The position numbers were made by a program, and so were the translations under genes. 64,000 bases of DNA from a virus: IMG/VR virus record IMGVR_UViG_3300025133_000038, positions 55,351-119,350 of that record. One strand, given 5' to 3'. This document shows, in pieces, positions 368 to 36,271 of this stretch; within the stretch, counting starts at the first letter, position 1, and every line of letters starts with the position of its first letter. Under the pieces are notes generated by a model. That model searched no databases, was not told the origin of the DNA, and saw nothing but the letters and a program-made list of their open reading frames with translations.

Positions 368-1512
368 TGAAATACCTTAATAAGATTAAGCAGATAGTTG
401 GCTCTAAAAAGAAGGTCGTACTAACCGTCACTGGTGGTGGGACCGGAGTGTTTGGACACCTACTAAACTATGGTGGTGGGTCGGAGTTCCTAGTAGAGGG
501 TATTATCAACTACTCTATGGAGAGTACTCAAGACCTAATAGGTACACCAGACAGTTATGTTAGTAAGGAGGCCGCCCTTAAGTTGGCGGTAGCTGCCTAC
601 CAACGGTGTGTCAAGCTGGGTGTTGACCCTAAGGAAGCACACGGAGTATCAACAACGGCCAAGCTGGTGACTGAGGGTGAGCGAGAGGGTAGGGTCCATG
701 AGATTTACGCGGCCTACCACTCAAACGACAAGTCCTCGTATGTCCACCTGAGGTTTGAACATGATAGGTCTCGCGTGCAAGAGGAGTATCTCTGTGAGAA
801 CTTTATCTTAGATGCCCTAAACCAATGGTTCTGTGGGGTGGACATTGCTGATAAAAAGAACGGTCTTTTTACCTGCATGAAAAAGCCAGAGGTTATAGTG
901 GGAGATACGTGTGAGACTAGCCCTGAAATAAAAGAAATAATTCGCGACAACCGGAAAGTAATCGTTATTCATAAGTCTGAGGGCACTTGGAGCCAGCGAG
1001 ATTTGGAGAAGAGTCGTCCCCTTATTTTTCCTGGGTCGTTTAATCCTATTCATGCTCAACACCTAAGGATGGCTGACGCTGCCTATAAGAAAACAGATAA
1101 GCAGGTATGGCTAGAACTATCTATAGGTAATACAGACAAGCCAGCTCTTGATTATATTACTTTGAGGGATAGAGTCTTAGATATTATAAATAAGGTTGCC
1201 TCTAGGGATAGTGTCGCTGGGGTAGTCATTTCTAATGCACCACTCTTTATCCAAAAAGCTGAGGCTATCAACAGTTGTGCTACCTTTCTAATGGGGATGG
1301 ACACATTCAATAGAATGAATGAAAAGAAGTATTATCCCAAGGAAACTAAACATATCCTTGATGGCTATTGGGTAAAGCTAATGGTCTTCAGTAGGAAGGG
1401 AGACAAGAGAATTTATCCTTCTGAGTTTGGAGACATAACAACTTTCATTTCAAAGCAAGAGTATAAAGATACCGGACTATCGTCCACACAGATTCGCAAC
1501 GCTAAAAATTAA
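364..1512 (+). CDS. CinA/PncC-like domain fused to nicotinamide/nicotinate mononucleotide adenylyltransferase (NadD/NMNAT-like) domain
   Basis: N-term VTGGG...GGSEFLVEGIINYS (CinA C-terminal domain-like); C-term IFPGSFNPIHAQH (HxGH-type motif), MGMDT and LSSTQIR nucleotidyltransferase motifs. Confidence 0.75.
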   Translation: MMKYLNKIKQIVGSKKKVVLTVTGGGTGVFGHLLNYGGGSEFLVEGIINYSMESTQDLIGTPDSYVSKEAALKLAVAAYQRCVKLGVDPKEAHGVSTTAKLVTEGEREGRVHEIYAAYHSNDKSSYVHLRFEHDRSRVQEEYLCENFILDALNQWFCGVDIADKKNGLFTCMKKPEVIVGDTCETSPEIKEIIRDNRKVIVIHKSEGTWSQRDLEKSRPLIFPGSFNPIHAQHLRMADAAYKKTDKQVWLELSIGNTDKPALDYITLRDRVLDIINKVASRDSVAGVVISNAPLFIQKAEAINSCATFLMGMDTFNRMNEKKYYPKETKHILDGYWVKLMVFSRKGDKRIYPSEFGDITTFISKQEYKDTGLSSTQIRNAKN

Positions 1513-19437: not shown

Positions 19438-20020
19438 TGAATTTAATATTGGGGACGCAATGGACTCCCTGGACGATGGTGATATGGCTAGAGTCGAAAG
19501 GCTTATCGAAAAATTAGCCAAGCAAAAACAGAAAAATTCTCAGGGTCGCCCACCAAAAAATGGTGGAAATCAGAGGAAAAAGAGAAGGTCAAACCTTGAC
19601 AATTCTCAATCTGAGCCTAGTATACAAGGGAAGACGCGAGGAAAACGACCTCCGAGACAACCAAATCCTAACACTAACAATGGAGTTCAGCGTAGGGGTC
19701 AAGGTCAACAAAAGAGGAAGACCTTTACTAAGCGTGAGGCTATTGATACGTCAGGTCAGAGACACAATAAGTTTGAAGACTTTGGTTATGACGACCAGTT
19801 CAAGCAAGACTCTGAGCTAGACCAAAAACTAAGCGGAAACAACAGACCAACCCCTAGAATGGGAAGCAACAACAACCCCTATGTTGAAGCGACATGTGTG
19901 ATTTGTAACTGGATATTTGATGTGACCCCTAACGAGGTTTATAACGACCCAGACAAGGGTCCAATTTACAAATGTAATGATTGTGCATCGCAAGAAGCAA
20001 GAGGCGGAAGAAGAGGTTAA
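19430..20020 (+). CDS. hypothetical protein with basic disordered middle and C-terminal Zn ribbon
   Basis: CVIC...CNDC at C-terminus. Confidence 0.7.
   Translation: MSDEFNIGDAMDSLDDGDMARVERLIEKLAKQKQKNSQGRPPKNGGNQRKKRRSNLDNSQSEPSIQGKTRGKRPPRQPNPNTNNGVQRRGQGQQKRKTFTKREAIDTSGQRHNKFEDFGYDDQFKQDSELDQKLSGNNRPTPRMGSNNNPYVEATCVICNWIFDVTPNEVYNDPDKGPIYKCNDCASQEARGGRRG
19593..19623 (+). promoter_or_regulatory. internal class-1-like promoter ACCTTGACA-N16-TAGTAT upstream of dnaB
   Basis: Same extended -35 and 16-nt spacer as the intergenic promoters; -10 imperfect. Confidence 0.45.
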
Positions 20021-20023
20021 TGA

Positions 20024-21469: not shown

Positions 21470-22604
21470 TTATAATCATGTCGGGCAGGAGAAAATGGCA
21501 GCGATGGGTGAAGAACTCGTCGAGCGAATAGATGAGTTGTTTGATGTATTGGGCGTTACTCTCAGACGAGAGAAGAGGAAGTATGTAGGGTGTTGTCCAG
21601 TTCACGGTGGTGATAGAGACAATGCCCTTAACTTGTTCTATGAGGGTAATAGTATGGTGGGCAACTGGAAGTGTCGCTCACACTCCTGTCACGAACGATT
21701 TAAGCCTACTATAGTAGGGTTTATACGAGGTGTCCTGTCCAACAGAGAGTTGAACTGGGAGGCTCCTGGTGACGAAATGTATAGTTTTCACGACACTATC
21801 AAGTTCATCACAGGCTTCCTCGGTAGTGACTTAGACAAGTTCTCTGTTGACCTGAGCAAGGTTGAAAAGTCCCGCTCAGGTGACCACACTAATAGATTCT
21901 ACGCTAAGAAACAAAATATTAAAAATAAGATACCCAGGGCTACAGTAAGGAAGTTTATAGTTGAACCAACGTACTACATCGACCGAAACTATTCAAAGAA
22001 AATCCTCGATAAGTATGATGTTTCCTTCTGCAACAATCCTAAGAAGCCAATGTATAAGAGGTGTGTAACACCGATTTACGATGACGACCATAAGTTTATG
22101 GTTGGCTGCACTGGGCGCAGTATATTTGAGAAGTGTGGTGACTGTGGGGGTTTCCATGACCCTAACAGGCCATGCCCTCTACCTGATGAGGTTCGCAGGT
22201 ATTCCAAATGGAAGCACAGTTATCAGTTCGCAGCAGAAGAGTGGTTATATAACTACTGGTATGCCAAGAGGCATATCTTAGAGACTAAGTGTGCTGTGCT
22301 AGTAGAAAGCCCTGGTAATGTGTGGAGGCTTGAAGAAGCAGGCATCCACAATAGCCTGGGGTTGTTTGGAATAGCCTTGAATGATGGTCAGCTAGATTCT
22401 CTGAACAGATGTGGGGCGATGAATATCTTGTTAGCCCTTGACAATGATGACGCTGGTTCTTTAGGTGCTGAACCTATTATAGAAGAGCTGTCTAACTTAT
22501 ATAATGTAGAAGTACTAGATATTTCCGGTGCGGACATCGGAGATATGACACCAGAACAGGTCAAGAAAGACTTATTACCACAGATTGAGAGATTTTACGT
22601 ATGA
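21435..22604 (+). CDS. dnaG: DNA primase (Zn finger + TOPRIM)
   Basis: CPVHGGD...WKCRSHSC, GCTGR, LYN, LVESPGNV, LDNDDAG, DIGDM; start may be 21494. Confidence 0.9.
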   Translation: MAKMEKTSHSTNYNHVGQEKMAAMGEELVERIDELFDVLGVTLRREKRKYVGCCPVHGGDRDNALNLFYEGNSMVGNWKCRSHSCHERFKPTIVGFIRGVLSNRELNWEAPGDEMYSFHDTIKFITGFLGSDLDKFSVDLSKVEKSRSGDHTNRFYAKKQNIKNKIPRATVRKFIVEPTYYIDRNYSKKILDKYDVSFCNNPKKPMYKRCVTPIYDDDHKFMVGCTGRSIFEKCGDCGGFHDPNRPCPLPDEVRRYSKWKHSYQFAAEEWLYNYWYAKRHILETKCAVLVESPGNVWRLEEAGIHNSLGLFGIALNDGQLDSLNRCGAMNILLALDNDDAGSLGAEPIIEELSNLYNVEVLDISGADIGDMTPEQVKKDLLPQIERFYV

Positions 22605-22939
22605 ATATCCTATTCCTAGACGATGATAAAAAGAGACAGAGAGATTTTAGAAGTAAGGTGCCGTCTGCAAAGATAGTGTCAACTGCTGAGGTCTGTATTA
22701 ACAATATTCAAAAAGAAGATGTCTGGAATATCTTATTCTTAGAGGGTGAGTCGTGTGGTGGTACAGAAATAGTACAGTGGATAGTTGAGAACGAACCTCA
22801 GGTTCGCAATATCATTGTCCACGCACAAAATCCAGATACTGGGATGGAGATGGTACAGGCTCTTAAGAGCGCACAGTATCAGGCTTCTTACATGCCCTTT
22901 AATACAATGCTTAAAAATATGGAGAAGGTAAATGGCTAA
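22601..22939 (+). CDS. stand-alone receiver-like (cyclic-phosphate-processing Rec family) protein
   Basis: ILFLDDD...ILFL...GTEIVQWI...IIVHAQN; the usual LDHDLG is replaced by LEGESCG. Confidence 0.6.
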   Translation: MNILFLDDDKKRQRDFRSKVPSAKIVSTAEVCINNIQKEDVWNILFLEGESCGGTEIVQWIVENEPQVRNIIVHAQNPDTGMEMVQALKSAQYQASYMPFNTMLKNMEKVNG

Positions 22940-23771
22940 TATAGTAGCGTTTTCTGGTAAGAAACAGAGTGGAAAGAACACCTCTGGGAACTTCTTACTG
23001 GGTATGAAAATGATAGACCTTGGTTTGACTCATGGTATTGAGATGACCAAGAAGGGGCAGTTGCTTATCCGAGATTTGTACGGTGACGCTCAATGGGAGG
23101 GTGTTTTCGCCTATGAAAGCACAGTGCAGACAGTCAGGGACTTTATTGATACGGAGATTCATCCCTGGTATAAGATATACAGCTTTGCTGACCTCCTTAA
23201 GGAGTCTCTGTGTATTGAGCTGCTTGGCTTGACCCATGAACAGTGCTATGGTACTGATGAACAGAAGAATACTCCTACTCACTTGAAGTGGGAGGATATG
23301 CCTGGAGTCGCCACAACAGACGTGTGGGGTACAATTGACGGAAAGAAAACTCTAGATAGTCTAGGGATGGCCTATCATACCCCTGGATTTATGACAGCCC
23401 GTGAGGTTATGCAGTTTGTCGGAACAGACATTATGCGTAAGATGTATGGTGATGTATGGTCCAAAGGAACAGTAAATAGGATTCTCAAAGAGAACTCTGA
23501 GATGGCAGCAATATGTGACTGTCGTTTTCCTAATGAGGTAGAGGCAGTACAAGAGGCTGGCGGGAAAGTAATTAGATTGACACGATTTACAACAGATGTA
23601 GACCCACATCCTAGTGAGACAGCATTGGACGGCTACAAAGGGTTTGACGCCGTAATTGATAATCAAAATATGAGCCTGGGTGAACAAAACGGAGCTATCT
23701 ATGACCAACTTACGAAGTGGGGTTTCCCACTACCAAAGCTTGACGGGTTAGAGACTAACATTAAAGAGTAA
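22932..23771 (+). CDS. deoxynucleoside monophosphate kinase
   Basis: SGKKQSGKNT, SFADLLK, TAREVMQFVGTD, DCRFPNE, HPSE. Confidence 0.9.
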   Translation: MANIVAFSGKKQSGKNTSGNFLLGMKMIDLGLTHGIEMTKKGQLLIRDLYGDAQWEGVFAYESTVQTVRDFIDTEIHPWYKIYSFADLLKESLCIELLGLTHEQCYGTDEQKNTPTHLKWEDMPGVATTDVWGTIDGKKTLDSLGMAYHTPGFMTAREVMQFVGTDIMRKMYGDVWSKGTVNRILKENSEMAAICDCRFPNEVEAVQEAGGKVIRLTRFTTDVDPHPSETALDGYKGFDAVIDNQNMSLGEQNGAIYDQLTKWGFPLPKLDGLETNIKE

Positions 23772-23777
23772 ATTTAT

Positions 23778-24875
23778 ATGGGAATGCCTATAACGTATTT
23801 TAGAAGCAGTAGTTACAATGGCTGGGACATGTGTCCTATGCAGTACATGATTGAATATGTCTTAGGGCATAGAGGTAAGTCAGGTCTTGCAGCAGACAAG
23901 GGAACTATTGTCCACAAGGTACTTGAAATAATAGCTAATGCTAAGATTGCCCATCAGGGTGGACTAACATCAATTACGGAGACTGACATTGGTACTCATA
24001 CCTGGACTGTTCACGAGGATACCATCCTTGACGAAGAACAGGTTGATGAGATTACCAACGTGGTCTTTGAATACTATAAGACGAGGACTCCACACAAGTG
24101 GGCTCCTAAGGACTACCGTGACGTTCACAAGTGGGTACAAAAAGCACTCGCTCTGAATGATGGTGAGTTTGACCCTCGTAACAAAGATATTGTTGAGGCT
24201 GAGGCCCGCTTTGACTTTGAGATTGAGGAGCCTTGGGCTTACTATAAGTTGGATGAGGTAGAGGGCTTCCTTGCTTTGAAGGGAACTATTGACCAAGTTA
24301 ATAGGGTGGACGATACTACGTTAGAAATCCTTGATTGGAAGACAGGGCGTAGGCTTAACTGGGCGACTGGCAAAGAGAAGGATTATGCTGCTCTGTGTAA
24401 AGACCCTCAGCTACGTATCTATCACTATGCTGCGCATAAGATGTGGCCTGAGATTGAGCAGATACTAGTGACCATCTACTTCATTAATGATGGTGGGCCT
24501 TTCACGGTGTGCTTCGGACCTGAGGAATTAAAAGAAACAGAGAAGATGCTACAGAAGAGATTTGAGGAGATTAAGACCAATGAGATGCCTCAAAAGAAAG
24601 TCTCTTGGAAGTGTAGTAAGTTCTGTGGTCAAGGTAAGAGTACGTTTGAGGGGACTACCAACAAGGAGGGTGGTGACATCAAACCTCTTATTCAAAGGCA
24701 GGATGGTCACGTTACAAAGGCTGGACAGGTGATGTCTAAGTGTGAACAGACCGACTATGCACTAAGACACAAGGGTATGGAATCAGTAATTAAAAATATG
24801 ACCGCCGATGGACACGAGGTTGCCTTTTATAAGGCTCCAGGCGAGGTCGAGGAGGAGAAAAAAGATGAAGCGTAG
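23778..24875 (+). CDS. PD-(D/E)XK RecB/Cas4-like exonuclease
   Basis: SSYN..CP, GTIVHKVLE, GTIDQV, ILDWKTG, QLRIY, C-terminal Cys cluster. Confidence 0.85.
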   Translation: MGMPITYFRSSSYNGWDMCPMQYMIEYVLGHRGKSGLAADKGTIVHKVLEIIANAKIAHQGGLTSITETDIGTHTWTVHEDTILDEEQVDEITNVVFEYYKTRTPHKWAPKDYRDVHKWVQKALALNDGEFDPRNKDIVEAEARFDFEIEEPWAYYKLDEVEGFLALKGTIDQVNRVDDTTLEILDWKTGRRLNWATGKEKDYAALCKDPQLRIYHYAAHKMWPEIEQILVTIYFINDGGPFTVCFGPEELKETEKMLQKRFEEIKTNEMPQKKVSWKCSKFCGQGKSTFEGTTNKEGGDIKPLIQRQDGHVTKAGQVMSKCEQTDYALRHKGMESVIKNMTADGHEVAFYKAPGEVEEEKKDEA

Positions 24876-25476
24876 AACATTTATGAAGGCAGTAGCAGCG
24901 ACTACTAGCCTTGTAGTCTTGCCTTTTAAGGCATTAGCTAAGAAACAACCTATGAGTTGGGAATATCCTGCGATAGGTAAGATTGAGAGTATCTATTGCT
25001 CTAATGATATTTCTTCTTCTGTTATGTTTAATGGTGGTCCAAGTTATGAGCTTCCTCGTAAGAATGGTCCCTATATTAGATGGATAAACTTTCCTATCGA
25101 GACTATGCTGGAGATAAACTTCGAGAACGAGGCTTGTATTGTCTACAAGGGGTTTAACTTCAAGCGAGAGCAGATAGAAGGTAAGACACTAGATGAGATG
25201 ATTCACCATGTTAAAATATCAAAGATGGGTATCTCAGAACTATACTTAGATAAAAAGAATTGCTTTAAGATGAGCAGCGTAACCTTTCCAAACCCAACAA
25301 AGGAAACGATTGTAGTAAACCTAGAAGACTTAGGTTTGGGAGACATGAGGAGGGTTCCTAATGATAATGCTCCACGCATCACCTATGAGACATTGTTTGA
25401 TGGAAAGCCTGCTAGTGAGGTGGATTTATCTCGTTACCGAGAATCGGAAGCCGAAATACTAAAGAGGTATATTTGA
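24865..25476 (+). CDS. hypothetical protein with twin-arginine (Tat)-like signal peptide
   Basis: GGAGGAG SD; MKRRTFMKAVAATTSLVVLPFKALA. Confidence 0.6.
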   Translation: MKRRTFMKAVAATTSLVVLPFKALAKKQPMSWEYPAIGKIESIYCSNDISSSVMFNGGPSYELPRKNGPYIRWINFPIETMLEINFENEACIVYKGFNFKREQIEGKTLDEMIHHVKISKMGISELYLDKKNCFKMSSVTFPNPTKETIVVNLEDLGLGDMRRVPNDNAPRITYETLFDGKPASEVDLSRYRESEAEILKRYI

Positions 25477-25928
25477 TGCACCCTGGATGGCCTGCATATT
25501 GGGCTGATTACAAGAGGTGCCTGAGGGCACAAGGAATTGAAGTAAAGGAACCAAAGATGGACCTGACATTTAAGAAGTTGGCAGAAGGGCTAAAGGAAAG
25601 CAACAAGAACTACTTTCCTCATGCTCGTAAGTGGACTGGGTCGGACTGGATGACAGCCCTATGTGGTGAGGTGGGTGAAGCCGCCAACATAATCAAGAAG
25701 ATTAACCGTGGTGATTTTAAAACAGAGGAAAAACTAGCTATCGCCCATAAGGAACTAAGCAAGGAGTTTGCTGATATTCTCATGTACTTAGAGCATATCT
25801 CTCGTCACTATGGTATAGACCTAGAGAAGGCAGTTCTTGACAAGTTTGAGGAAGTTATGACTCGCGTTGACAGCGACCTTTCTCTCAGAGAAAAAGATGA
25901 CAAAAAATCGGTTTACCCACAATATTAG
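25473..25928 (+). CDS. mazG: MazG-like nucleotide pyrophosphohydrolase
   Basis: LCGEVGEAANIIKK...KEFADILMYL...GIDLE. Confidence 0.85.
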   Translation: MMHPGWPAYWADYKRCLRAQGIEVKEPKMDLTFKKLAEGLKESNKNYFPHARKWTGSDWMTALCGEVGEAANIIKKINRGDFKTEEKLAIAHKELSKEFADILMYLEHISRHYGIDLEKAVLDKFEEVMTRVDSDLSLREKDDKKSVYPQY

Positions 25929-25943
25929 AATTTTCCGCGAGCG

Positions 25944-25974
25944 ACCTTGACAAAATCGCCTTTCGCCCTATAAT
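25944..25974 (+). promoter_or_regulatory. class-1 promoter ACCTTGACA-N16-TATAAT
   Basis: TTGACA 25947-25952, TATAAT 25969-25974. Confidence 0.88.
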
Positions 25975-26015
25975 ACCCAAAGACAACTTGAGACTTTTCA
26001 CAAAACGAGATTGAT

Positions 26016-27896
26016 ATGAAAACTTATACACCACTACATTGTCATACTCATTACAGTCTACTTGATGGCCTATCAAAGCCAGAGAAGGTAGCTGAGAGAC
26101 TTGACGAGATAGGTGTTGAGGCGTGTGCTATCACAGACCACGGTAATATCAGTGGTAGTGTGGCCTTCTCTAATGCCCTAAGGGGCCATGAACGCCCTAA
26201 GAAATCTATTCTTGGGTGCGAACTATATGTTTGTAGTGAACATGCTACTATTCAAGTTCCAGAGAACCAAAAGCTACTACATCTTCCAGTCCTAGCTAAG
26301 AACAAGGCTGGTTGGAACAAGTTAATTCACCTAACTAGTAGTTCTAATTCCTCGGAACACTTCTATCATAAGCCCCGGCTGTCCCTAGACCAGATAACGG
26401 AGTATTCTGGTAACCTTATTGGCTTCAGTGGTCACCTGGGTTCCCATATTGCCTCCTCTATCCTGGTTGATGGTAAGCCCCATGATAACTGGCGTAAGCA
26501 AACAGCTAAGCTAGCCGAATGGATGCGAGACTGTTTCGGTAAGGACAATTTCTACCTAGAAATCCAACTAATGGACCACGTAAGCAATCCCCTACAGAAG
26601 GTGGTAGCAGACTGCGTGCGAACAATTAGTAAGGACACAGGTATCCCCTGCATTGCTACTCCTGACGCCCACTATGCTAGGTCAGAAGACGCAATCGACC
26701 AGAGGATTCTTCTCTGCACCAACTTGAGAAAGACTCTAACTGAGTGTTATAACGATAAGAATCAAACTATGGGTTGTTTCTTCAAGTCTGAGAATTATCA
26801 CATCCCTTCATACGAAGAGATGCTTTCATATGGGCATACTGAGGAAGAGTTAGATAACACAATGGCTCTGACTAGTACTGTTGATGACTATCAGATTGTT
26901 GGCCCTCCTATTTTCCCTCAGTTTGAATGTCCTGGTGGCATTAGTGCTGATGACCACCTAAGGCAGATGTGTAGGGATGGTTTTAGGCAAAAGGTACTAG
27001 AGAAGGGATTAGATACAGCCCAATATGGGGCTCAGGCAGACAAAGAACTTAAGGTATTTGTAGATGCTCAACTATCTGCGTACTTCCTGATTGTTCAGGA
27101 TGTTCTACAGTTTTGTACTGATAAAGGGTGGATGTTAGGACCGGGGCGTGGCTCAGCAGCAGGCTGTCTAGTCTCATACCTGATTGACATTACTCAGATT
27201 GACCCTCTTCCACATGAGTTGTGGTTTGAGCGATTTTATAACGCTGGCCGTAATAGTGCTGACCATGTATCTATTCCTGATATTGATATGGACGTGCCTA
27301 TCACCAAGCGGGCGGCTGTTATTGACTATTTAAAAGAGAAGTACGGGCAAGACAAAGTCTCTCAGATGATTACCTATCAGACAATGAAGGGTAGTGGGGC
27401 GTTGAAGGCTGTACTAAGGGCTCACGGTGGTGTTCCGTTCGAGATGATGAACGAGATGACCAAGAACATGCCTGAGGAGGCTAAGATTTCCAGTGAGCTT
27501 CAGGCGATGAAGGATGCTACTGGTAGTGCCTCTATTATTCAGTGGGCGCTGGAGAACAGAGCGAAGGATTTTGCTGACTGGGTGACGATGGATGACGAGG
27601 GTAACCTTGAGGGTCCATTCGCACAGCGGTTTGAACAGGCTATGAGACTAGAGGGTACTAAGGTAGCTCAGTCTAAGCACGCTGCTGGTGTAGTTATTGC
27701 ACCGGAGGCCCTAAGTAACATCTGTCCGATGGTACTGGATACAAAGAGCAAGGAACGCAACATGATTGCGGGACTTGAAATGAATGACCTTGAGGCGTTA
27801 GGCTTAATCAAATTTGATGTACTTGGCATTGCTTACTTGGATAAGATTATGGGTATTCAGGACATTCTTGGGACAGGGGAGATTCAGTGTGCGTAA
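26016..27896 (+). CDS. dnaE: DNA polymerase III alpha, N-terminal half (PHP + palm/thumb)
   Basis: LHCHTHYSLLDG, ITDHG, DAHY, GPGRGSAAG, FERF, PDIDMD, SKHAAGVVI, GLIKFDVLG; stops about 20 aa after KFD. Confidence 0.95.
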   Translation: MKTYTPLHCHTHYSLLDGLSKPEKVAERLDEIGVEACAITDHGNISGSVAFSNALRGHERPKKSILGCELYVCSEHATIQVPENQKLLHLPVLAKNKAGWNKLIHLTSSSNSSEHFYHKPRLSLDQITEYSGNLIGFSGHLGSHIASSILVDGKPHDNWRKQTAKLAEWMRDCFGKDNFYLEIQLMDHVSNPLQKVVADCVRTISKDTGIPCIATPDAHYARSEDAIDQRILLCTNLRKTLTECYNDKNQTMGCFFKSENYHIPSYEEMLSYGHTEEELDNTMALTSTVDDYQIVGPPIFPQFECPGGISADDHLRQMCRDGFRQKVLEKGLDTAQYGAQADKELKVFVDAQLSAYFLIVQDVLQFCTDKGWMLGPGRGSAAGCLVSYLIDITQIDPLPHELWFERFYNAGRNSADHVSIPDIDMDVPITKRAAVIDYLKEKYGQDKVSQMITYQTMKGSGALKAVLRAHGGVPFEMMNEMTKNMPEEAKISSELQAMKDATGSASIIQWALENRAKDFADWVTMDDEGNLEGPFAQRFEQAMRLEGTKVAQSKHAAGVVIAPEALSNICPMVLDTKSKERNMIAGLEMNDLEALGLIKFDVLGIAYLDKIMGIQDILGTGEIQCA

Positions 27897-28842
27897 ATCA
27901 AGACACAAAGATATGTCTCGTCAAAAATTTCATATGTTTACTCTTATAAAGAGGGTGGAGAATACTAAGCATGGAGAAGTAAAATATTTATGTGAATGTG
28001 ATTGTGGAACAATAAAAGAGGTTGTTTTATCACACCTAAGAAGAAATAGTGTGAAATCTTGCGGCTGTAAGAGAAGAAGTAGTCTAGAGGGTAAAAAATT
28101 TGGAAGATTATTGGTTAAAAAATATTCCCACACAGATAAGCATCGTTGTATGAGATGGGAATGTTTATGTAAATGTGGAAATATCTGCTATCCAACTTCT
28201 GCCCATTTAACTACTGGCACTGTAAAGTCTTGCGGGTGTTTAGTCGCAAAGAGCAATCAAATTAAATTGGATAATATAAAACAGGATAGGGTTTTAAATA
28301 ATAATTTAGCAAAACTACATCCTAACCTTTGTTTAATATGGGATTATAAAAAAAACAACAAAACGCCAGAAGAATTTACTAGCGGCAGTGGAGAAAAAGT
28401 GTGGTGGACTTGTGATAAACACGAGTCTTATCTACAAACTATATATGCTAAGTCTAAAAGGAATCATACTTGTCCAAAATGTAAGGTTTCCCATGGAGAA
28501 AGACGGATAATATCTATCCTAGATAAGTTAAAGATAGAATATTTATTTGACCAGAAAGAAAATAAGTATAAAGAGATAGAAGATTGTAAAATAGATTTTT
28601 ACCTACCAAGGTTTGACCTGTATGTAGAATATCATGGGCGACAACACTATAAAGCTATTGATATTGGAGTATGGGGAATAAAATCCAAAGAAGAAGGTGA
28701 AGCTAGATTGAAGAAACAACAGATAAGGGACCAATTGGTCCGAGACACACTAGGTAACAAACTACTAGAAATTCCATACTGGGATTTCGATAATATTGAA
28801 ACTTTAATTTTGGAGAAATTAGAATGGTTAAAAGAGAACTGA
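27889..28842 (+). mobile_element. free-standing homing endonuclease-like gene (Cys-rich DNA-binding repeats + Zn ribbon + Vsr-like nuclease)
   Basis: Two C.C.CG...KSCGC repeats, HP...WDY.KN...SG.KVWW.C...CPKC, IDFYLP...VEYHGRQHY; visibly more AT-rich than flanks; GTG 27889 overlaps dnaE-N stop. Confidence 0.8.
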
Positions 28843-29204
28843 AGTTTAAAGACCTAAGCGAAGGAGAAATCTTTAAGCATAACGGTAGATGGCTAAAGAA
28901 AGTTCGTCCTCATGGATTGCTCTGGGCTCCAAAGAAGAACGCTACTGAAGTTAACACAGGAGATGAAGATTTCTTTGTAGATGATTCAACCCTAGTTAGC
29001 GTCGATAGCGAACTACCACAAGTAGACGAAGCCCCAGAGATGGAGCAGGTATTTGAACAAGGGCAACTTGAGTGTGAAGACCCACTTGGAGTAGAGAAAA
29101 CCCCTGAAAAGTCAGACCTAACCTTTGACTATGGTAGTTCTGAAGAGGATTCTGAAAAGGGCTGTGATGAAGACTGCGATGAAGGTTGCGGGAGTTGTGA
29201 CTAA
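28824..29204 (+). CDS. hypothetical protein with acidic, Cys-containing C-terminus
   Basis: Coupled ORF; FKDLSEGEIF N-term; ends GCDEDCDEGCGSCD. Confidence 0.65.
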   Translation: MVKRELKFKDLSEGEIFKHNGRWLKKVRPHGLLWAPKKNATEVNTGDEDFFVDDSTLVSVDSELPQVDEAPEMEQVFEQGQLECEDPLGVEKTPEKSDLTFDYGSSEEDSEKGCDEDCDEGCGSCD

Positions 29205-29911
29205 TGAATTTCAAAAACATCGTAGTCTATGACTGGGAGACAGACTCACCTAAACCTGAGACCTGCAACCCAGTCCAACTCGGTGCTGTAGTTATCAACC
29301 CTCGTAAGCTAGAGTTCATTAAAGGTGCTGAGTTTAACTCAGATATGAGACCTCTAGACATTGATGATGATGACTATTTCGACCGAAACAAAAGCACCAT
29401 CGAGTGGCACTCTAGAATTTCTAAGTGTTCAACTGATGAGGTTATTGCAAGATGGAAGGCAGCTCCTTCACAAGAGTCGGTATGGCGTAGTTTCACTCAG
29501 TGGCTATCAAAGTATCACCTAAAGCAATCTCGTCAGTCTAAGTTCACGGCCCCTATTAGGGCTGGGTATAACATTCTCAAGTTCGATGATGTTATCACTC
29601 AGAGAATGGCCGAGAAGTATGGTGACGTTGAAAAGGATGGGACAATCAAGATTTGGTCACCTAGAGACCACATTGACTTGCTCCCTATGATGTTCTGGTG
29701 GTTTGAGAACCAAGAAAATCCTCAGAAGTATACTATGGATGTAATGAGACCCTACTTTGGCGTTAGCGCTGAGAAGGCTCACGATGCCCTTAAGGATGTA
29801 TATGACGAAGGCCAGATACTAATTAAGTGTCTACAGACACAACGATGGCTGACTGACAAACTACTTACCCAAGGAAAGTTAGGTCCGAAAAGTGGAAAAG
29901 TTCAAGTTTAA
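29204..29911 (+). CDS. DEDDh 3'-5' exonuclease (DnaQ/epsilon-like)
   Basis: ExoI VYDWETD, ExoII AGYNILKFDD, ExoIII AHDALKD. Confidence 0.88.
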   Translation: MNFKNIVVYDWETDSPKPETCNPVQLGAVVINPRKLEFIKGAEFNSDMRPLDIDDDDYFDRNKSTIEWHSRISKCSTDEVIARWKAAPSQESVWRSFTQWLSKYHLKQSRQSKFTAPIRAGYNILKFDDVITQRMAEKYGDVEKDGTIKIWSPRDHIDLLPMMFWWFENQENPQKYTMDVMRPYFGVSAEKAHDALKDVYDEGQILIKCLQTQRWLTDKLLTQGKLGPKSGKVQV

Positions 29912-31553
29912 CTACTGTGATTGTGAATTTCCCTGCACTGGCAGCGGAGATGATTTGAAGATTATCTTCAATCCTAGTCTCGAAAGCATCCCTATGTACT
30001 GTGAAGCTACATGGGACTTGATTGGGTCTGGGAATACTAAAGGTGTCTTCCAATTAGAGTCTAGGTTGGGCCAAATGCTGGCTAAGAAGTTAAAACCTAG
30101 GAATATTGACCACCTATCGGCCCTTGTCGCCATCATGCGTCCAGGTTGTCTGGAAGCTATGCGTGATGGTAAGTCGGTTACCCAACACTACATCGACAGA
30201 AAGAATGATGAAGAAGCGGTGACGTATTTTCACCCCTCTTTGGAGCCAAGTCTACGTTCTACCTTTGGTGAAATGATTTACCAAGAACAAGCCATGCAAA
30301 TAGCGAGAGACCTAGCGGGTTTCTCTCTGCAAGAAGCTGACGTTCTACGTAAGGCCATCGGTAAAAAGAAGGCTGACATGATGAATAAGGTTGAATATAC
30401 CTTTATGGAGGGCTGTAAGTTCACTGGTGTTGTTCCTAATGATGTAGCTAAAGAAATTTTTGAGTGGATTCGTAAATCTCAGAGATATTCATTCAATAAA
30501 TCTCACTCCGTTAGTTATGCTTACAATGCATACCTATCGGCTTATACCAAGGCACACTTTCGGCGTGCCTTTTTTACCTCCTATCTTTATTATGCAAAGG
30601 AAAAGATTAAACCGCATGATGAGGTTAGAGAGTTAGTTAATAATGCAAGGACTATGGATGTAGACGTATATCCTCCTGACTTGCGTAAGCAGAATGCTCA
30701 CTTCGCCCTATTTGACCGCAAAGTATTCTTTGGTTTGGTTGATATTAAGGGTGTGGGTGAGTCTGCAATCACACGAATGACGAAGAAAATAGTTCAGGCA
30801 GAAGAAGAACTGGGTAGGCCAATCGAGGATTGGTGTTGGTCAGACTTCTTACTGTTCCTGTCCCAAAACATTAGCAAGACCGCTGTCGAAGCCATGATTA
30901 AGGTCGGGGCTTTACGATGGATGAACGTGTCACGTCAACGAATGTGGTTTGAGTTCGAGCAATTCTCTGCTGTCTCTGATAGGGAGCAGAAGTGGCTCAA
31001 AGAGAAGTATATAGATGATAGTCAGAGTGATATGAGCTGCTCTGAACTATTACAAATACTGTTGGACTCCCCTGTTGGGAGAAAAGGTGGTATATCCAAT
31101 AAGAATAGGCATAAGAAGGTGGTTGGTATCAAGGCAATAGTCGATAAGCCACCATCTAGCCTAGAGGATACGCCTGAGTGGATAGCCTCTGTTGAAGAAT
31201 CACTAATGGGAATTTCCATCACATGCACTGTGGTAGACTCGTGCGAAACGAGCGCTGCTAACACAACATGTAAAGATTTTAACAGTGGTACTAGTCGCAA
31301 AAACGGTATAATGATGGCTGTAAAAGTGGACGAGGTGAAAGAGATTACAACTAAGAAAGGGAAGAACCCTGGTCAGAAGATGGCCTTTCTTTCTGTTTCA
31401 GATAGTTATGGTGCTTTGGATTCTTGTGTCCTATTTCCTGACGAGTGGACTCAAAGTAGGGTGAAGCTGTTCATAGGCAACACTGTTATGCTTGGAGGCG
31501 AACGAGGTAAGGAAAAGGATAGTTTTATAGTTAATAAAGTTTGGCAAATTTAG
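29892..31553 (+). CDS. dnaE: DNA polymerase III alpha, C-terminal half (fingers, HhH, OB)
   Basis: TKGVFQLES, AIMRPG, IYQEQAM, ADVLRKAIGKK, YSFNKSHSVSY, IKGVGE, MAFLSVSD; GTG start. Confidence 0.93.
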   Translation: MEKFKFNYCDCEFPCTGSGDDLKIIFNPSLESIPMYCEATWDLIGSGNTKGVFQLESRLGQMLAKKLKPRNIDHLSALVAIMRPGCLEAMRDGKSVTQHYIDRKNDEEAVTYFHPSLEPSLRSTFGEMIYQEQAMQIARDLAGFSLQEADVLRKAIGKKKADMMNKVEYTFMEGCKFTGVVPNDVAKEIFEWIRKSQRYSFNKSHSVSYAYNAYLSAYTKAHFRRAFFTSYLYYAKEKIKPHDEVRELVNNARTMDVDVYPPDLRKQNAHFALFDRKVFFGLVDIKGVGESAITRMTKKIVQAEEELGRPIEDWCWSDFLLFLSQNISKTAVEAMIKVGALRWMNVSRQRMWFEFEQFSAVSDREQKWLKEKYIDDSQSDMSCSELLQILLDSPVGRKGGISNKNRHKKVVGIKAIVDKPPSSLEDTPEWIASVEESLMGISITCTVVDSCETSAANTTCKDFNSGTSRKNGIMMAVKVDEVKEITTKKGKNPGQKMAFLSVSDSYGALDSCVLFPDEWTQSRVKLFIGNTVMLGGERGKEKDSFIVNKVWQI

Positions 31554-31560
31554 TGAAACG

Positions 31561-31592
31561 ACCTTGACAAATGGGTCGGTGGTGGCTATAAT
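31561..31592 (+). promoter_or_regulatory. class-1 promoter ACCTTGACA-N17-TATAAT
   Basis: TTGACA 31564-31569, TATAAT 31587-31592. Confidence 0.88.
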
Positions 31593-31646
31593 GCTACTAT
31601 GAAGTGTGTTTTTTGACAATAACAATTTTTTGGAGGAACAGAACTA

Positions 31647-32087
31647 ATGAATATCGTAGTTCTAAAAGGTAATCTCGCAAGAGACCCAGAATCGCGTGAA
31701 GTAACAGCAAACGGACGTACAACCACAGTGGTAAACTTTTCGATTGCAGTCTCTCGGTTCTTTAAAAAGCAGGATGGCACTAAGGATAAGGACGTAACTT
31801 TCATCGCATGTGAAGCATGGGATACTGGTGCGGAGACCATCGCTAAGTATGTGAAAAAGGGTGACCCCATCCTTGTTCACGGTTCGCTTAAGACCGAATC
31901 ATGGCCTGATAAGGACAACCCAGAAAAGAAGCATTCTCGAACTAAGGTTCGCGTAGAACGCTTCGATAAATTGTATCGGGCTCCTAAGAATGAGGATGGC
32001 ACCTATGTCAACTCCTCAGCAACTTCGGAACCTGTTCCTGCTAACGCTGGACCATCCGATACAGAGGGAGACGACATCCCGTTCTAA
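31647..32087 (+). CDS. ssb: single-stranded DNA-binding protein
   Basis: MNIVVLKGNLARDPE, KKGDPILVHGSL, acidic tail DDIPF; GGAGG SD. Confidence 0.95.
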   Translation: MNIVVLKGNLARDPESREVTANGRTTTVVNFSIAVSRFFKKQDGTKDKDVTFIACEAWDTGAETIAKYVKKGDPILVHGSLKTESWPDKDNPEKKHSRTKVRVERFDKLYRAPKNEDGTYVNSSATSEPVPANAGPSDTEGDDIPF

Positions 32088-32596
32088 TGGAATGTCGCTA
32101 TAGTCCACAACAAGTTGACGACTTGGTCCATGAGAACATGGGCCTTGTCGTCTCTATTGTTAAATCCCTGAGACCCCCTAACGCAACTGAGTACGAAGAG
32201 TATATTCAGTTGGGTAGGATAGGGTTATGGAAAGCAATTCGCAAACATGACCCGAAGCTGGCTAAACTATCAACAATCGCATGGGACTACATTAGATGGG
32301 AAATTATTCGTTATATCAATAAGAGCGTTAAATATAACACCTTGATGAATAACCCAGATGCCCAATATAGACTTCAATGCGTTCATTCTGAACGAACCCA
32401 AGAGTTGTTTACAGACAGTGTTGCCGAAGCCATACCAAGTTCCCTTTCAAAATCTGAATGCATAGTAGTGGATATGCGTCACCAGGGATATACCTTCGAA
32501 GAGATAGGTAAAGAGCTTGGAGGTTATACACGAGGTTGGGCAAACAAACTATTCAAACTAGCAATAAAGAAGATACAAGATGCCAACGAAAACTAA
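32087..32596 (+). CDS. sigma-70-family sigma factor (regions 2 and 4)
   Basis: NMGLVVSIV...EEYIQLGRIGLWKAIRKHDP...LSTIAWDYIRWEI; LSKSE...GYTFEEIGKELG. Confidence 0.85.
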   Translation: MECRYSPQQVDDLVHENMGLVVSIVKSLRPPNATEYEEYIQLGRIGLWKAIRKHDPKLAKLSTIAWDYIRWEIIRYINKSVKYNTLMNNPDAQYRLQCVHSERTQELFTDSVAEAIPSSLSKSECIVVDMRHQGYTFEEIGKELGGYTRGWANKLFKLAIKKIQDANEN

Positions 32597-34253
32597 GAAG
32601 CGTATATTGATGGTTAATGAAGGTGGTCATCTTCATACTGGATATGGCAACTACGGATTAGAAGTTCTAACCAGACTGTATAATACTGATAAGTATGAGA
32701 TAGCTGAGTTTTCTAGTTTTACAACCATAGAACAAGCAAGAGACAACAAGGCTATTTGTCCTTGGAAAATCTATGCTAATGCTGTTCATAAAGATGACCC
32801 TAGATACGAACAAATGAAAGCTAGAGGAGATTGTTCCTTTGGTTCTTGGAGGTTTGAGAGGGTTGTGCTAGACTTTAAGCCAGATATTGTCTTTGACATA
32901 CGAGACTACTGGATGCTTGCCTTTGAGAATGACTCCCCTTTGAGGGAGTATTTTCATTGGAGCATAATGCCTACTGTAGATTCTTCTCCCCAAAACGAAT
33001 CATGGCTAGAAACCTTTATTCAAGCAGATAGTGTATTCACCTATTCTGATTGGGGAAAGGAAGTTCTAGAGGACGAAGGTGGAGGTAAGATTGAAACATG
33101 TGGAGTAGCATCTCCTGGTGTTGACCTCAATGTTTTTACCCCTACTAAAGATAAGAATGTCCATAGAGATAGTATGGGGTTGAGTGGAGACCTTAATATA
33201 GTAGGTACGGTTATGCGTAACCAAAAACGTAAACTATACCCAGAATTATTTGAAGCCTTTGCAAACTATATAGAAAAGTGCATCAAAGAAGGTCGTGAAG
33301 ACTTAGCTAAAAAAAGCTACTTATATGTTCATACTTCATATCCTGATAGCGGATGGGAAATACCACAGCTATTAGCTAGGTATGGATTAAGCCATAAGGC
33401 TCTCTTTACATATCTATGTGGAAACTGCGGGTATTATTTCTCTTCCTTCTTCCAAGATGCTAGAACAGTATGCAAGAAGTGCAGTCATACCTCAGCTATG
33501 CTACCTAACTCAGCCAAGGGCTTAACAAGAAAGCAACTAGCTGATGTCTACAACCTATTTGACGCATATGTTCAATACTCTATCTGTGAGGGTTTTGGTA
33601 TGCCTCAGGTAGAAGCTATTGCTTGTGGAGTTCCTATCTTTACCGTTGGCTATAGCGCCATGACAGAGATTGGGGTTAAGTCAGGAGGCTTTGTTGTACC
33701 CCCTAAGACTAAATTCTTAGAATTAGAGACAGGAGCTTATAGGGTATACCCTGATAATGACTATCTTGTTGACTCTTTGTTTAACTTCTTTATAAAACCT
33801 CTTCCTGCAAGGGCTAAGTTTAATTTCCAAGCAAGGCAAACAGCAGAAAAATTCTACGACTGGGATGTTACAGCTAAGATATGGGAAAACCATTTCGACT
33901 CTATTGAGCTAACCGGAAACCAAGGCAAGTGGGACACTAAGGTTAGTATCCACGAACCAGCCGAAAGCATTCCTCCTCAGCATGAAAACTGGAACAACGA
34001 AGATTTTGTAGAATGGTTAATCCTAGATGTTTTAGGAAGACCAGACCTAATTAATGGACATTATTCTATGGAAGCCTATAGAAGTCTTCATTATGGAATT
34101 AGAAAGGTCGGAGAAGAATATGTTAACATTACTAGACAAGACCTATTCAATGCAGCTAAGGCTAAGGCTAAGTTAAAAGCCCTAGCTGAAAAAGCTAGGA
34201 TGGGAATGGTTACCGTTCTAAAGGAAGATTTTATCGAGGCTGCAAATGAGTAA
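32580..34253 (+). CDS. GT-B (GT4-like) glycosyltransferase with Zn-ribbon insertion
   Basis: TGYG, PGVD, VMRNQKRK, EGFGMPQVEAIACG; CGNC...CKKC insert. Confidence 0.9.
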   Translation: MPTKTKKRILMVNEGGHLHTGYGNYGLEVLTRLYNTDKYEIAEFSSFTTIEQARDNKAICPWKIYANAVHKDDPRYEQMKARGDCSFGSWRFERVVLDFKPDIVFDIRDYWMLAFENDSPLREYFHWSIMPTVDSSPQNESWLETFIQADSVFTYSDWGKEVLEDEGGGKIETCGVASPGVDLNVFTPTKDKNVHRDSMGLSGDLNIVGTVMRNQKRKLYPELFEAFANYIEKCIKEGREDLAKKSYLYVHTSYPDSGWEIPQLLARYGLSHKALFTYLCGNCGYYFSSFFQDARTVCKKCSHTSAMLPNSAKGLTRKQLADVYNLFDAYVQYSICEGFGMPQVEAIACGVPIFTVGYSAMTEIGVKSGGFVVPPKTKFLELETGAYRVYPDNDYLVDSLFNFFIKPLPARAKFNFQARQTAEKFYDWDVTAKIWENHFDSIELTGNQGKWDTKVSIHEPAESIPPQHENWNNEDFVEWLILDVLGRPDLINGHYSMEAYRSLHYGIRKVGEEYVNITRQDLFNAAKAKAKLKALAEKARMGMVTVLKEDFIEAANE

Positions 34254-35367
34254 GAATATTTTATTTATAGCGCCCTATCGACAGGGTGATGGTTGGGGTA
34301 AGGCTTCTCAAGATTTTGCCCTAGCTATGGAAACTACTAAGCATAATATTGCTATTCGCCCTATATATATGGACAGAGGTTTCTTTAAGCAAGAAGCTAT
34401 AGACCCAAAACTAATAGAAATGGAAGGTCGTTCTTTTGATAAGTATGATATGGTTATCGAAAATGTTCTTCCTAACTACTATGAGAAAACAGAGGTTCCT
34501 ACTCTGGCGTTTTTGTTCTTAGAGACAAACAATCTTGATAAAACCTTTTGGTATAGACCTATGTCTATCATGGATGGTATAATAGTTGCCTCTGATGCAG
34601 AGAAAACGACTGTTGACAGAGAAATCAATACACCTTGTTGGAACGTAGGTGGTCCCCTAGACAGCACTGTTGAAGATGAGGGCGACCTTGAGGGAATACC
34701 AAAGGACACTTTTAACTTCTACTTTATTGGAGAGAGTATTGATAGAAAGAACTTGGAGGCTTTAATTACAGCTTTCCATCTTGAGTTCTACCGTAGCGAA
34801 CCTGTGAACCTTATCCTTAAACTAAATAAAAGTGGTATGGATTCTCGCACTCTAAGCCAGCATATGCAAAAAGAGATACAGGGTATAAAAAACAAACTAC
34901 GCATCTACGAAGATAAAAATCTTTACAAGTCTGAATATCTTATTACAGATAGGCTGACAGAGAAAGAAATGGTACAGCTACATACGTCGTGCAACTGTTT
35001 TGTTATGCCTTCTAGAGGAGAGGCTTTCTGTAGACCTGCTGCTAGGGCTATGGTGTACGGCAACACTCCTATTGTTACAGACAATACAGGAATGACAGCC
35101 TTTATTAATGATGAAACAGGATGGGTTGTTCCATCGAAAGAAGTTCCTCTTGTTTCTAGGGATTATCCCCTAAAAGGAATATACACAAGTCGTGAAACGT
35201 GGTATGATATTGATATACTCGCTCTAGGCAAGGCTATGAGAGAGGCTTATACCTCAGACAGAACAGATAAGATTAAAGCAGGAATGGAAATGGCTAAGGC
35301 CCTAACTTATGAATCTGTTGGAAAAAATATAGAAAGGGTCATTGATGAGTACGACTCCAGTCAGTAA
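34246..35367 (+). CDS. GT4-like glycosyltransferase
   Basis: DGWG, RKNLEALI, FVMPSRGEAFCRPAARAM..G.TPIVT. Confidence 0.85.
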   Translation: MSKNILFIAPYRQGDGWGKASQDFALAMETTKHNIAIRPIYMDRGFFKQEAIDPKLIEMEGRSFDKYDMVIENVLPNYYEKTEVPTLAFLFLETNNLDKTFWYRPMSIMDGIIVASDAEKTTVDREINTPCWNVGGPLDSTVEDEGDLEGIPKDTFNFYFIGESIDRKNLEALITAFHLEFYRSEPVNLILKLNKSGMDSRTLSQHMQKEIQGIKNKLRIYEDKNLYKSEYLITDRLTEKEMVQLHTSCNCFVMPSRGEAFCRPAARAMVYGNTPIVTDNTGMTAFINDETGWVVPSKEVPLVSRDYPLKGIYTSRETWYDIDILALGKAMREAYTSDRTDKIKAGMEMAKALTYESVGKNIERVIDEYDSSQ

Positions 35368-36271
35368 TATACTACACAGAACATTAAACAAAAGAGATAA
35401 GCTCAACATACTATGTTTCTTCTTTGATGGGCGGTTTGAAGACGTTCTAGTAAAGACAGGTCATAATATCTACGGTGCGGAAAACTCCTTTATCTCTAAC
35501 TGCGATAGAAATCCAAACCTAAGGTACTTGCCTGACAATATCTCTCAAGTAGAACAGGATATGTGCTGGGATTTAATTCTATATAACCATGAAGAATCTC
35601 AGTTCAATAACGCTAGAAAAATGAGTGCGATATTACACGTACCAGCTCTAAGAGTTGAGCACTTCCTTTCTGCCACAAACATACCAACCGAGATTACAGA
35701 AGACACGGTCTTTTCTCACTCTGTTGTCAAAAATTCTTATAAGGCAGACGGCGAAATTATTCGTTATGGTATTGAAGATTCAGGCGAATCAGAAGAAGAA
35801 CGCGATATTGATGTGTTGATTCATGGTAACTTTATTCCTAGTGACTATCAAGCCGTAAGGTTTATTGAAGGATTAGACTACAATGTTGAGGTTTGGGGAG
35901 ACAGTCCTGGTTTATCAGAACAGATTTCTAATGAAGACTTAGTAAGTAAGCTCAAAAAGACCAAGGTTTTTATCAACCTCTCAACTCAGGGCGGTGTTCC
36001 TTATAGTGCCTTAGTTGCTATGATGTCTGGGTGTGCTATTATTTCTAATAAGACTGAAGCTACAGAGGGTGTCTTTACTGATGACTTTGCTATCTTAGTC
36101 AAGACACTTGAGGATTTTGATGTGTCGCTAAACCATATTCTGTCCACTGATTGGAAAAATATGGGAAAAGCTGCTAGAAAGGTAGCCCTTGAAAACTTTA
36201 ATATCGAAACTAATGCTAAGTTATGGGACAAAAAACTAAGACAAAAAAGTGAAGAGGTTTATATAAGATGA
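35345..36271 (+). CDS. divergent GT-B glycosyltransferase
   Basis: KVFINLS...PYSALVAMMSGCAIIS...MGKAARK. Confidence 0.7.
   Translation: MSTTPVSNILHRTLNKRDKLNILCFFFDGRFEDVLVKTGHNIYGAENSFISNCDRNPNLRYLPDNISQVEQDMCWDLILYNHEESQFNNARKMSAILHVPALRVEHFLSATNIPTEITEDTVFSHSVVKNSYKADGEIIRYGIEDSGESEEERDIDVLIHGNFIPSDYQAVRFIEGLDYNVEVWGDSPGLSEQISNEDLVSKLKKTKVFINLSTQGGVPYSALVAMMSGCAIISNKTEATEGVFTDDFAILVKTLEDFDVSLNHILSTDWKNMGKAARKVALENFNIETNAKLWDKKLRQKSEEVYIR

Follow-up and report, generated by a model that had tools for sequence, protein, structure and literature searches.

The main finding of this work is a dnaE gene, encoding the alpha subunit of DNA polymerase III (Pol III), that an uncultured marine phage carries in two separate pieces. 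The stretch analysed, hereafter the window, comprises 64,000 nucleotides and corresponds to positions 55,351 to 119,350 of the IMG/VR virus record IMGVR_UViG_3300025133_000038. Within 26016-31553 of the window lie five open reading frames (ORFs), all on the plus strand: the two dnaE pieces, here called dnaE-N and dnaE-C, and in the gap between them a homing-endonuclease-like gene, a small acidic ORF and the gene of a DEDDh exonuclease. Most probably the two pieces encode a non-covalent, two-protein C-family polymerase that is cut between palm and fingers and co-expressed with the exonuclease, the endonuclease gene having no part in the split. A first-pass annotation of this DNA had proposed a heterodimeric replicase that assembles non-covalently. 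The comparative evidence presented here agrees with a two-protein polymerase, with the lack of a splicing element and with the cut at the palm/fingers junction, but not with the metal bridge or the origin resembling that of NrdA in phage Aeh1, which formed part of the same proposal.

In dnaE-N, a PHP domain (Pfam PHP, 3e-35) is followed by the palm with its three catalytic aspartates, as in C-family polymerases of the DnaE type (Pfam DNA_pol3_alpha, 5e-66, over profile positions 2-260 of 260), and the best sequence match to a solved single-chain DnaE has an E-value of 8e-69. All 27 N halves compared keep the motifs PDIDMD (D422, D424 and D426) and KFD (D601) unchanged, which together with the Pfam matches corroborates the earlier description of an N half with PHP domain, palm and all catalytic aspartates. 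Nine residues of the PHP domain (window 26016-26700), namely H10, H12, D17, H42, E69, H89, H140, D217 and H219, are likewise invariant or nearly so in the 27 N halves. They probably correspond to the nine metal ligands of proofreading-competent DnaE1, and both the PHP domain and the DEDDh protein may therefore be candidates for proofreading in this phage.

The remaining domains of a DnaE-type polymerase are found in dnaE-C: fingers (Pfam DNA_pol3_finger, 2e-44), the beta-binding HhH region (HHH_6, 2e-10) and, in the structural model, an OB fold. Its best sequence match to a solved single-chain DnaE has an E-value of 2e-52, and many finger residues are invariant in an alignment of 40 C halves. 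The AlphaFold2 model of this half has a mean predicted local distance difference test (pLDDT) score of 91.5, with head residues 1-30 at 84-86, and matches solved single-chain DnaE at Z-scores of 21-22 (22.4 for M. tuberculosis 5LEW, residues 22..360 on 608..933; 22.0 for E. coli 5FKU, residues 18..553 on 576..1073). Residues 445-553 of the model align to OB folds at Z 11-12.7. The structural alignments to solved DnaE begin only at model residue 14-25; the first 17-21 residues of the C half are an addition relative to those structures and are predicted to form short beta strands. At the junction the two halves tile a single polymerase. The PHROG profile phrog_405, built on one full-length phage DnaE, is matched from 42 to 613 in N and from 622 to 1052 in C. 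Sequence alignment equates N 608 with residue 625 and C 32 with residue 647 of Taq alpha, and N 609 with 589 and C 29 with 607 of M. tuberculosis DnaE1. Because of these alignments and the C model, we place the break at the palm/fingers boundary, at about E. coli residue 575/576, with no core residue lost. The statement of the first-pass annotation that no core sequence is missing holds accordingly, and the alignment to E. coli DnaE that it had called for is supplied, for the C half, by the match to 5FKU.

No device that could join the halves was found. No intein or Hint Pfam family matched either of them. The N half ends a mere 22 residues past KFDVLG, the C half has just 33 ahead of its conserved IP, and RYSFNKSH, which contains the site at which cyanobacterial dnaE is split, runs uninterrupted inside the C half, so that the locus is indeed intein-free and its cyanobacterial split-intein site intact, as had been annotated. 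A true intein in the closely related locus L002 was readily seen; therefore, the method is able to detect one. An Rfam search of 25500-32000 with E-values up to 1 returned no family and no intron RNA core, Rfam holding described families only. The halves appear to have no splicing element, and joining at the RNA level is predicted to be absent.

The same arrangement recurs in many relatives. The protein search listed 120 matches to the N half, one of them the window's own, and the counts given here hold among the matches listed. The other 119 are 52-70% identical, 613-666 aa long and contain PHP and palm only. At least 120 stand-alone matches to the C half were listed, and those in the 40-row alignment (533-574 aa) comprise the fingers and later domains only. 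In 78 of 81 related viral loci (N half 38-97% identical) the exonuclease gene lies downstream of N, and the contigs of the other three end within 121 nt of N. The C half is also present in 70 loci, where the order is N, exonuclease, C without exception (70/70) and C never forms one ORF with N. For nine of the 11 loci without C, the contig ends at most 433 nt past the last part seen (the exonuclease where found, otherwise N); in the other two, L023 and L036, the rest of the contig past the exonuclease is taken up by a 140-145-aa ORF and a prepilin-type/DUF1559-like gene. The latter gene (10193-11068 in L023, 7633-8505 in L036) encodes a prepilin-type N-terminal signal and resembles, by eye, DUF1559 proteins of Planctomycetes, and it may hint at the host of this subclade. 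A second set of loci added 28 with the same order, some of them on contigs of the first set. The survey of fused against split relatives suggested by the first-pass annotation thus returned both forms, with the split one in all 70 complete related loci. To judge from these loci, the split is old and widespread in a large lineage of uncultured aquatic phages.

The exonuclease shares in this conservation. It matches RNase_T (1e-5; 26.6 bits against a cut-off of 24) and phrog_192, 'DNA polymerase exonuclease subunit', and is 100% identical to the copy in L002. The DEDDh motifs Exo I (DxE), Exo II (D) and Exo III (Hx4D) are all present, and all 29 homologues keep their residues D10, E12, D128, H193 and D198. 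This bears on the view that cryptic splicing of RNA or protein rejoins the halves, or that the locus is decaying into a pseudogene. In favour of such a view, the dnaE genes of this phage group often contain inteins and intron-like interruptions (L002, L126 and L089). An invariant exonuclease active site in the interval, catalytic and structural residues of both halves that are invariant across relatives 38-97% identical, and a junction without any intein Pfam family or Rfam intron nevertheless render it highly improbable.

A further possibility is that a homing endonuclease fractured an intact dnaE, as mobE did with nrdA of Aeh1, and that the halves are held together by a metal site formed by terminal cysteines. 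A homing-endonuclease-like gene does sit in the break. Its product matches the Pfam treble-clef family DUF4379 (7e-12) and PHROG families named 'HNH/homing endonuclease' (down to 1e-25); no other Pfam family was found at E-values up to 10, and no sequence match in the PDB at E-values up to 1. Its stretch KIDFYLP..VEYHGRQH resembles, by eye only, the Vsr-type motifs described by Dassa et al. (2009), and recurs in a second ORF of the window at an E-value of 1e-4. Two further ORFs, at 18558-18977 (short, 140 aa) and 40018-40860, match the same PHROG endonuclease families (559, 9084, 4538 and 7140) and are only distantly similar to the gene in the gap. Cysteines occur at both new termini in the window, and homing-endonuclease genes are described as having broken up other intein-less genes, those of NrdA in Aeh1 and gp43 in Aeromonas phage 25 and one that is SbcD-like (PMC2677866).

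The comparison with L002, whose N half is 97% identical, argues against this origin. In L002 the N half, acidic ORF, exonuclease and C half are all present and the endonuclease gene is absent, yet dnaE is split all the same. By blastn, homology between the two ends at 27886 and returns at 28797, so that an insert of 910 bp replaces 5 bp. The last 2.3 codons of dnaE-N and its stop (27887-27896) fall inside the insert, which therefore encodes the N-half end '..QCA*' where L002 has '..QTV*', and the endonuclease ORF runs past the insert to end in the start of the acidic ORF. In public marine assemblies, contigs of X3 span both insert borders with 0 differences and X4 has parts at >=99%; contigs of X5 and X7 (24.7 and 18.4 kb) skip the insert and have dnaE split at the same place. 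No endonuclease homologue was found in the gap between N and C of the other 79 related loci (L003-L082), and in L011 a single weak match lies upstream of N. A mobile endonuclease, polymorphic in presence and absence, thus occupies the break, whereas the relatives that lack it, L002, X5 and X7 as well as the 70 complete loci, are not unbroken. Since these endonuclease-free loci are split too, the endonuclease is not the cause of the split, and its gene is a recent selfish insertion in the short spacer between N and the micro-protein ORF described below. The N-half cysteine, moreover, is encoded by the insert and not conserved. This reading as a whole is scarcely credible, and the analogy with the mobE-split NrdA fails. 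It is tempting to infer that a homing endonuclease lying in a broken gene broke it, and this locus shows that such an inference can be wrong.

The insertion is one of two mobile elements that distinguish the haplotypes of this phage. At MRPG|C of the C half, where the window has an empty site, L002 (8879-9604), X5 and X7 carry an intein of 726-732 nt, which is about 243 aa long and has an HNH-like motif. The window and X3 (X4 in part) have the endonuclease gene and the empty intein site, L002, X5 and X7 the reverse, and no contig with both or neither was seen among those compared. Within the block 26035-30149, dnaE-N is 94.3% identical to L002, and the stretch that begins with the acidic ORF and runs up to the intein site 95.4%; the flanks reach 97.1% (upstream, 20000-24866) and 99.1% (downstream, 30147-36063). 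One of the two mobile elements may have been exchanged jointly with the block that they delimit. In place of 24867-26034 of the window, which holds a 222-aa ORF and a MazG-like gene, L002, X5 and X7 have a different stretch of about 400 nt with a 126-aa ORF.

Upstream of the exonuclease most loci contain a micro-protein. The distance from the N stop to the exonuclease start has a median of 185 nt (range -4 to 6136; 78 loci), and in most loci a 57-62-aa ORF occupies it, with a CC pair that is invariant in 34 of 36 aligned members. The two without CC are those of the window and L002. Residues 1-61 of the acidic ORF form a beta-barrel domain homologous to the micro-protein of about 59 aa found in most relatives, with LW where the family has CC, and residues 62-126 form a disordered acidic tail with four cysteines, ending CDEDCDEGCGSCD. 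In the AlphaFold2 model residues 1-60 have a pLDDT of 81-91 and are all-beta with five strands, the tail scoring 50-62; the best matches by fold, none above Z 5.0, are SH3/KOW-like barrels of a generic kind. Theta (E. coli holE; HOT), the small partner of epsilon, is helical, and no theta entry appeared among the 50 fold-match rows for this domain; a functional analogy to it may exist. No Pfam family matched the micro-protein, and the Atlas gave only unnamed viral clusters. The family comprises 190 cluster representatives, nearly all stand-alone and 55-70 aa long, and no fusion with DnaE or with an exonuclease turned up when 1.84 billion representatives were searched with its profile. In other subclades the slot holds a 37-60-aa zinc-ribbon ORF or an unrelated 71-82-aa ORF; for a relationship between the CC type and a 75-aa type, hhalign gave a probability of 0.1%. 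In relatives the exonuclease ATG overlaps the preceding stop as ATGA, and this overlap of micro-protein stop and exonuclease start suggests that their translation may be coupled. Other cargo also occurs in the gaps, here named by eye from translations. L054 (8917-15029) has about 6 kb of metabolic genes between N and exonuclease (aldehyde-dehydrogenase-like, aminotransferase-like and others), and the gaps of L047 (9057-11561), L005 (8914-9784), L014 (6431-7277), L003 and L016 hold cargo as well. Across loci its kinds include an 834-aa RCC1-like ORF and uracil-DNA glycosylase (UDG)-like and GroES-like genes.

The first-pass annotation had noted cysteines at both new termini and suggested that they might share a metal site. 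The cysteines of the C-half head are real and conserved, C9, C11 and C37 being invariant in 40 of 40 C halves. The N-half counterpart did not survive comparison, for no conserved Cys or His was found in the N tails of 78 relatives (L002-L082 less three without a tail read), and, since the cysteine of '..QCA' is encoded by the insert, there is no conserved bridge of terminal cysteines. A metal bridge between the two new termini is not supported; a metal knuckle within the C half is plausible. By a crude pattern, CxC occurs in the C head of 54 of 70 loci and is missing in 16; most members of the divergent split subclade L060-L082 lack it, as do all the fused relatives that were read. The CxC...C stretch lies outside the part of C that aligns to solved DnaE, whose structures have no such head. 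In the subclade of the window and L002, the head has gained a fourth cysteine, C15, and the micro-protein has lost CC and carries the four-cysteine tail.

These observations raise the question of whether the CxC...C head binds zinc with a fourth ligand from the N half or from the CC micro-protein, so that the complex would be metal-bridged. The invariance of the three cysteines, their place outside the DnaE-like part, the absence of CxC from fused relatives, the CC pair kept in nearly all micro-proteins and the joint presence of C15 and a four-cysteine tail where CC is lacking are what such a bridge would explain. On the other side, L042, L058 and L063 keep a CC micro-protein without CxC, several loci with CxC have no CC micro-protein, and a whole split subclade does mostly without CxC. 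A bridge from the C head to the micro-protein is thus weakly suggested and contradicted by the loci with one motif alone, and we regard a metal-bridged complex as unlikely. His114 was also considered as the fourth ligand of the cysteine head and was dropped, as most fused relatives without CxC keep it.

When longer proteins were sought, single-chain DnaE of 1099-1157 aa turned up, with lengths of up to 1396 aa where an intein family also matched. Fused phage DnaE is 38-54% identical to the N half and bacterial DnaE 35-37% at most; the junctions of the fused proteins are short and without CxC. A FastTree phylogeny of 106 N parts unites the phage sequences in a single clade with a support of 100. 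Two fused clades (16 and 21 rows) and a single fused row are nested among split ones, the enclosing nodes having local supports of 97-99, and the fewest changes between fused and split states number five. This one quick tree of one gene part favours one early fission followed by later re-fusions. The opposite course, in which the fused form is ancestral and the split arose several times through an exonuclease-bearing cassette entering one permissive site, has in its favour that bacterial DnaE is single-chain and that the gaps of this module are prone to insertion (homing-endonuclease, UDG-like, GroES-like, metabolic and RCC1-like cargo). The place of the exonuclease gene also varies among fused forms. 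It adjoins dnaE upstream in fused clade B (L084-L088) and in fused L127 lies about 2.1 kb downstream, past ssb and a 556-aa gene. We nevertheless judge this course rather improbable, as the fused clades nest within split ones and a fused ancestor would need many more splits than the minimum of five changes, all with the same gene order and break point.

Some fused genes carry interruptions of their own. Among L126-L203, L126 and L127 were read by hand. In L126 (5001-9475) dnaE is continuous across palm and fingers, and just before PDIDVD there is an interruption of about 1 kb with a LAGLIDADG-type ORF (6327-7037); this intron-like interruption had no Rfam match, and a neighbouring Cas4-like nuclease gene carries an intein. 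In L089 (1427-5980), dnaE of the fused clade is interrupted at about N residue 380 by some 830 nt.

We infer from anatomy and conservation that the halves physically assemble and that the assembly is active; the exonuclease and micro-protein may be its subunits. In the two-protein polymerase that we propose, N and C would each fold on their own and meet at the palm/fingers interface, which in ordinary DnaE lies within one chain. N would supply the PHP domain, the catalytic Asp triad and the thumb, and C the fingers that complete the pocket for deoxynucleoside triphosphate (dNTP) and template, plus HhH and OB. A working active site would exist only in the complex, and synthesis would need both chains because the triad comes from one and the dNTP- and template-binding fingers from the other. 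One transcription unit would deliver N, exonuclease and C together, and the exonuclease made from the same message would proofread. Two points weigh against this reading. The fused alleles show that a single chain is equally viable, so that the split need not bring an advantage, and the occurrence of at least three unrelated protein types in its slot weakens the micro-protein as an obligatory subunit. A more elaborate scenario, tentative at best, is that of a replicase core of loose parts, with the micro-protein in many members, in which the cysteine knuckle docks the halves, possibly through a shared zinc, and one early fission was followed by at least two re-fusions that moved the exonuclease upstream (clade B) or downstream (L127). 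If true, C-family polymerases would possess, at the palm/fingers junction, a split site that is reversible in nature.

The features of the locus are collected in Table 1.

Table 1. Features in and around the split dnaE locus (window coordinates).
Feature	Position	Strand	Description
dnaE-N	26016..27896	+	PHP, palm and thumb of Pol III alpha; 626 aa; all three catalytic Asp
Insertion with free-standing homing-endonuclease-like gene	27887..28796	+	910 bp; blastn against L002
Endonuclease-like ORF	ATG 27913 to stop 28840-28842	+	Pfam DUF4379, PHROG families
Small acidic ORF	28824..29204	+	126 aa; homologue of the micro-protein family
DEDDh (DnaQ-like) 3'-5' exonuclease	29204..29911	+	235 aa; Pfam RNase_T, phrog_192
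dnaE-C	29892..31553	+	Fingers, HhH (beta-binding) and OB of Pol III alpha; 553 aa; GTG start
Empty intein site	30147..30149	+	Cys codon of MRPG|CLEAM; intein here in L002, X5 and X7
Sigma-70 consensus promoter-like site	25947..25974	+	TTGACA-16-TATAAT, 12/12; 42 nt upstream of the dnaE-N start
Second sigma-70 consensus promoter-like site	31564..31592	+	12/12; directly past dnaE-C, upstream of ssb
ssb	31647-32087		Single-stranded DNA-binding protein (SSB) by Pfam

The gap between dnaE-N and dnaE-C measures 1995 nt, and with its three ORFs it means that DnaE is not one continuous polypeptide here. The endonuclease stop (28840-42) overlaps the acidic-ORF ATG at 28824, TAATG at 29202-29206 is common to the acidic ORF stop and the exonuclease start, and the exonuclease stop (29909-11) overlaps the dnaE-C GTG at 29892. 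The description of all genes as overlapping head to tail therefore stands for the junctions of acidic ORF, exonuclease and C; N and the endonuclease overlap only if the latter starts at TTG 27814, and, because the insert begins at 27887, its start is likely the ATG at 27913, 16 nt past the N stop. Two perfect 12/12 matches to TTGACA-N16/17-TATAAT were found in 23500-33000, and they exactly bracket the five-gene block. They are consensus matches only, the two perfect ones among 19 promoter-like sites in total, a number without excess over shuffled sequences (mean 18.6). No convincing plus-strand terminator was found inside the block. The genes seem to form a single transcription unit in which stops and starts overlap.

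The viral record is 119 kb long, is estimated to be 79% complete and contains a large replication module. No Pfam match to PolA, PolB or beta-clamp was found in this record, at its estimated completeness, and the split dnaE is the sole DNA polymerase found in it. An ORF of 3044 aa on the minus strand (window 48624-57758) matches PHROG tail tape-measure families, and most structural ORFs near it are without any PHROG match. No cultured close relative was found; similarity to phage DNA in GenBank consists of short patches, and the best protein identities are about 33% for N and 30% for C.

Pol III alpha is the textbook single-chain bacterial replicase. A full-length DnaE made of two polypeptides, if true, would offer a natural palm/fingers split site for engineering and mechanistic work, because the active site would assemble from two chains. 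It would also be a new example of how the genes of proofreader and polymerase are kept in step, and a case on which to test how the gene of an essential enzyme is split and fused again. No description of an N-exonuclease-C layout of dnaE was found in the openly readable literature that was searched, and the accessible portions of three surveys of C-family polymerases (PMC3919608, PMC3201878, PMC12926913) mention no such split form. In the parts of the literature that were available, natural two-piece Pol III alpha takes the form either of split inteins in cyanobacteria and fractured genes (PMC2677866) or of a PHP-less jumbo-phage enzyme (PMC7824862).

Compared with single-chain DnaE (T. aquaticus 2HPI/3E0D, E. 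coli 2HNH/5FKU, M. tuberculosis 5LEW/7PU7), N plus C has the same domains in the same order, and the catalytic Asp triad is common to both. The phage chain differs in being broken between palm and fingers with an exonuclease gene nested in the break, in the extra head of about 17-21 residues with an invariant CxC on its C half, and in stopping at the OB domain, without the C-terminal tau-binding domain. The split DnaE of cyanobacteria and the 'fractured' dnaE of marine metagenomes rely on split inteins, with or without a free-standing endonuclease, as set out by Dassa et al. (2009; PMC2677866). They share with the phage a dnaE in two pieces; the fractured genes also have a free-standing endonuclease gene between the pieces and a marine viral or metagenomic source. 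Neither of the marks of a split-intein gene was found in the phage, that is, intein halves at the new ends and a break at Y/CFNKSH. Trans-splicing is impossible here because there are no intein halves, the break lies elsewhere than in cyanobacteria, and unlike in fractured dnaE the endonuclease gene is dispensable to the split.

Intein-less genes in pieces are known from T4-like phages, namely NrdA of Aeh1 with mobE and the PolB gp43 of Aeromonas phage 25 (PMC2677866). Like these, the phage dnaE would yield an essential replication enzyme from two polypeptides that associate non-covalently, its assembly being predicted, and has a mobile endonuclease gene in the gap. For NrdA and gp43, which concern a narrow group of phages, the break is ascribed to insertion of the endonuclease gene, whereas the break in the phage dnaE is older and spread over a very large lineage. 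Moreover, the dnaE break holds a functional partner gene, that of the exonuclease, and the polymerase is of family C, not B. The T4-like jumbo phages possess a 'minimal' Pol III alpha catalytic module that is likewise split into separate proteins, for which Iyer et al. (2021; PMC7824862) predict that they jointly restore an enzyme. As described there, that module is without PHP and other domains, is encoded by distant genes and exists alongside a family B replicase. The phage dnaE, by contrast, has full-length architecture, is split once into adjacent genes and encodes the only polymerase found. Finally, PolC of Firmicutes (Geobacillus 3F2B/3F2C; Z 14 for the C model) is a C-family enzyme with a DEDDh exonuclease embedded in the polymerase coding region. 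In PolC, the PHP domain of a single polypeptide contains the exonuclease as an inserted domain, whereas that of the phage is a separate ORF between palm and fingers.

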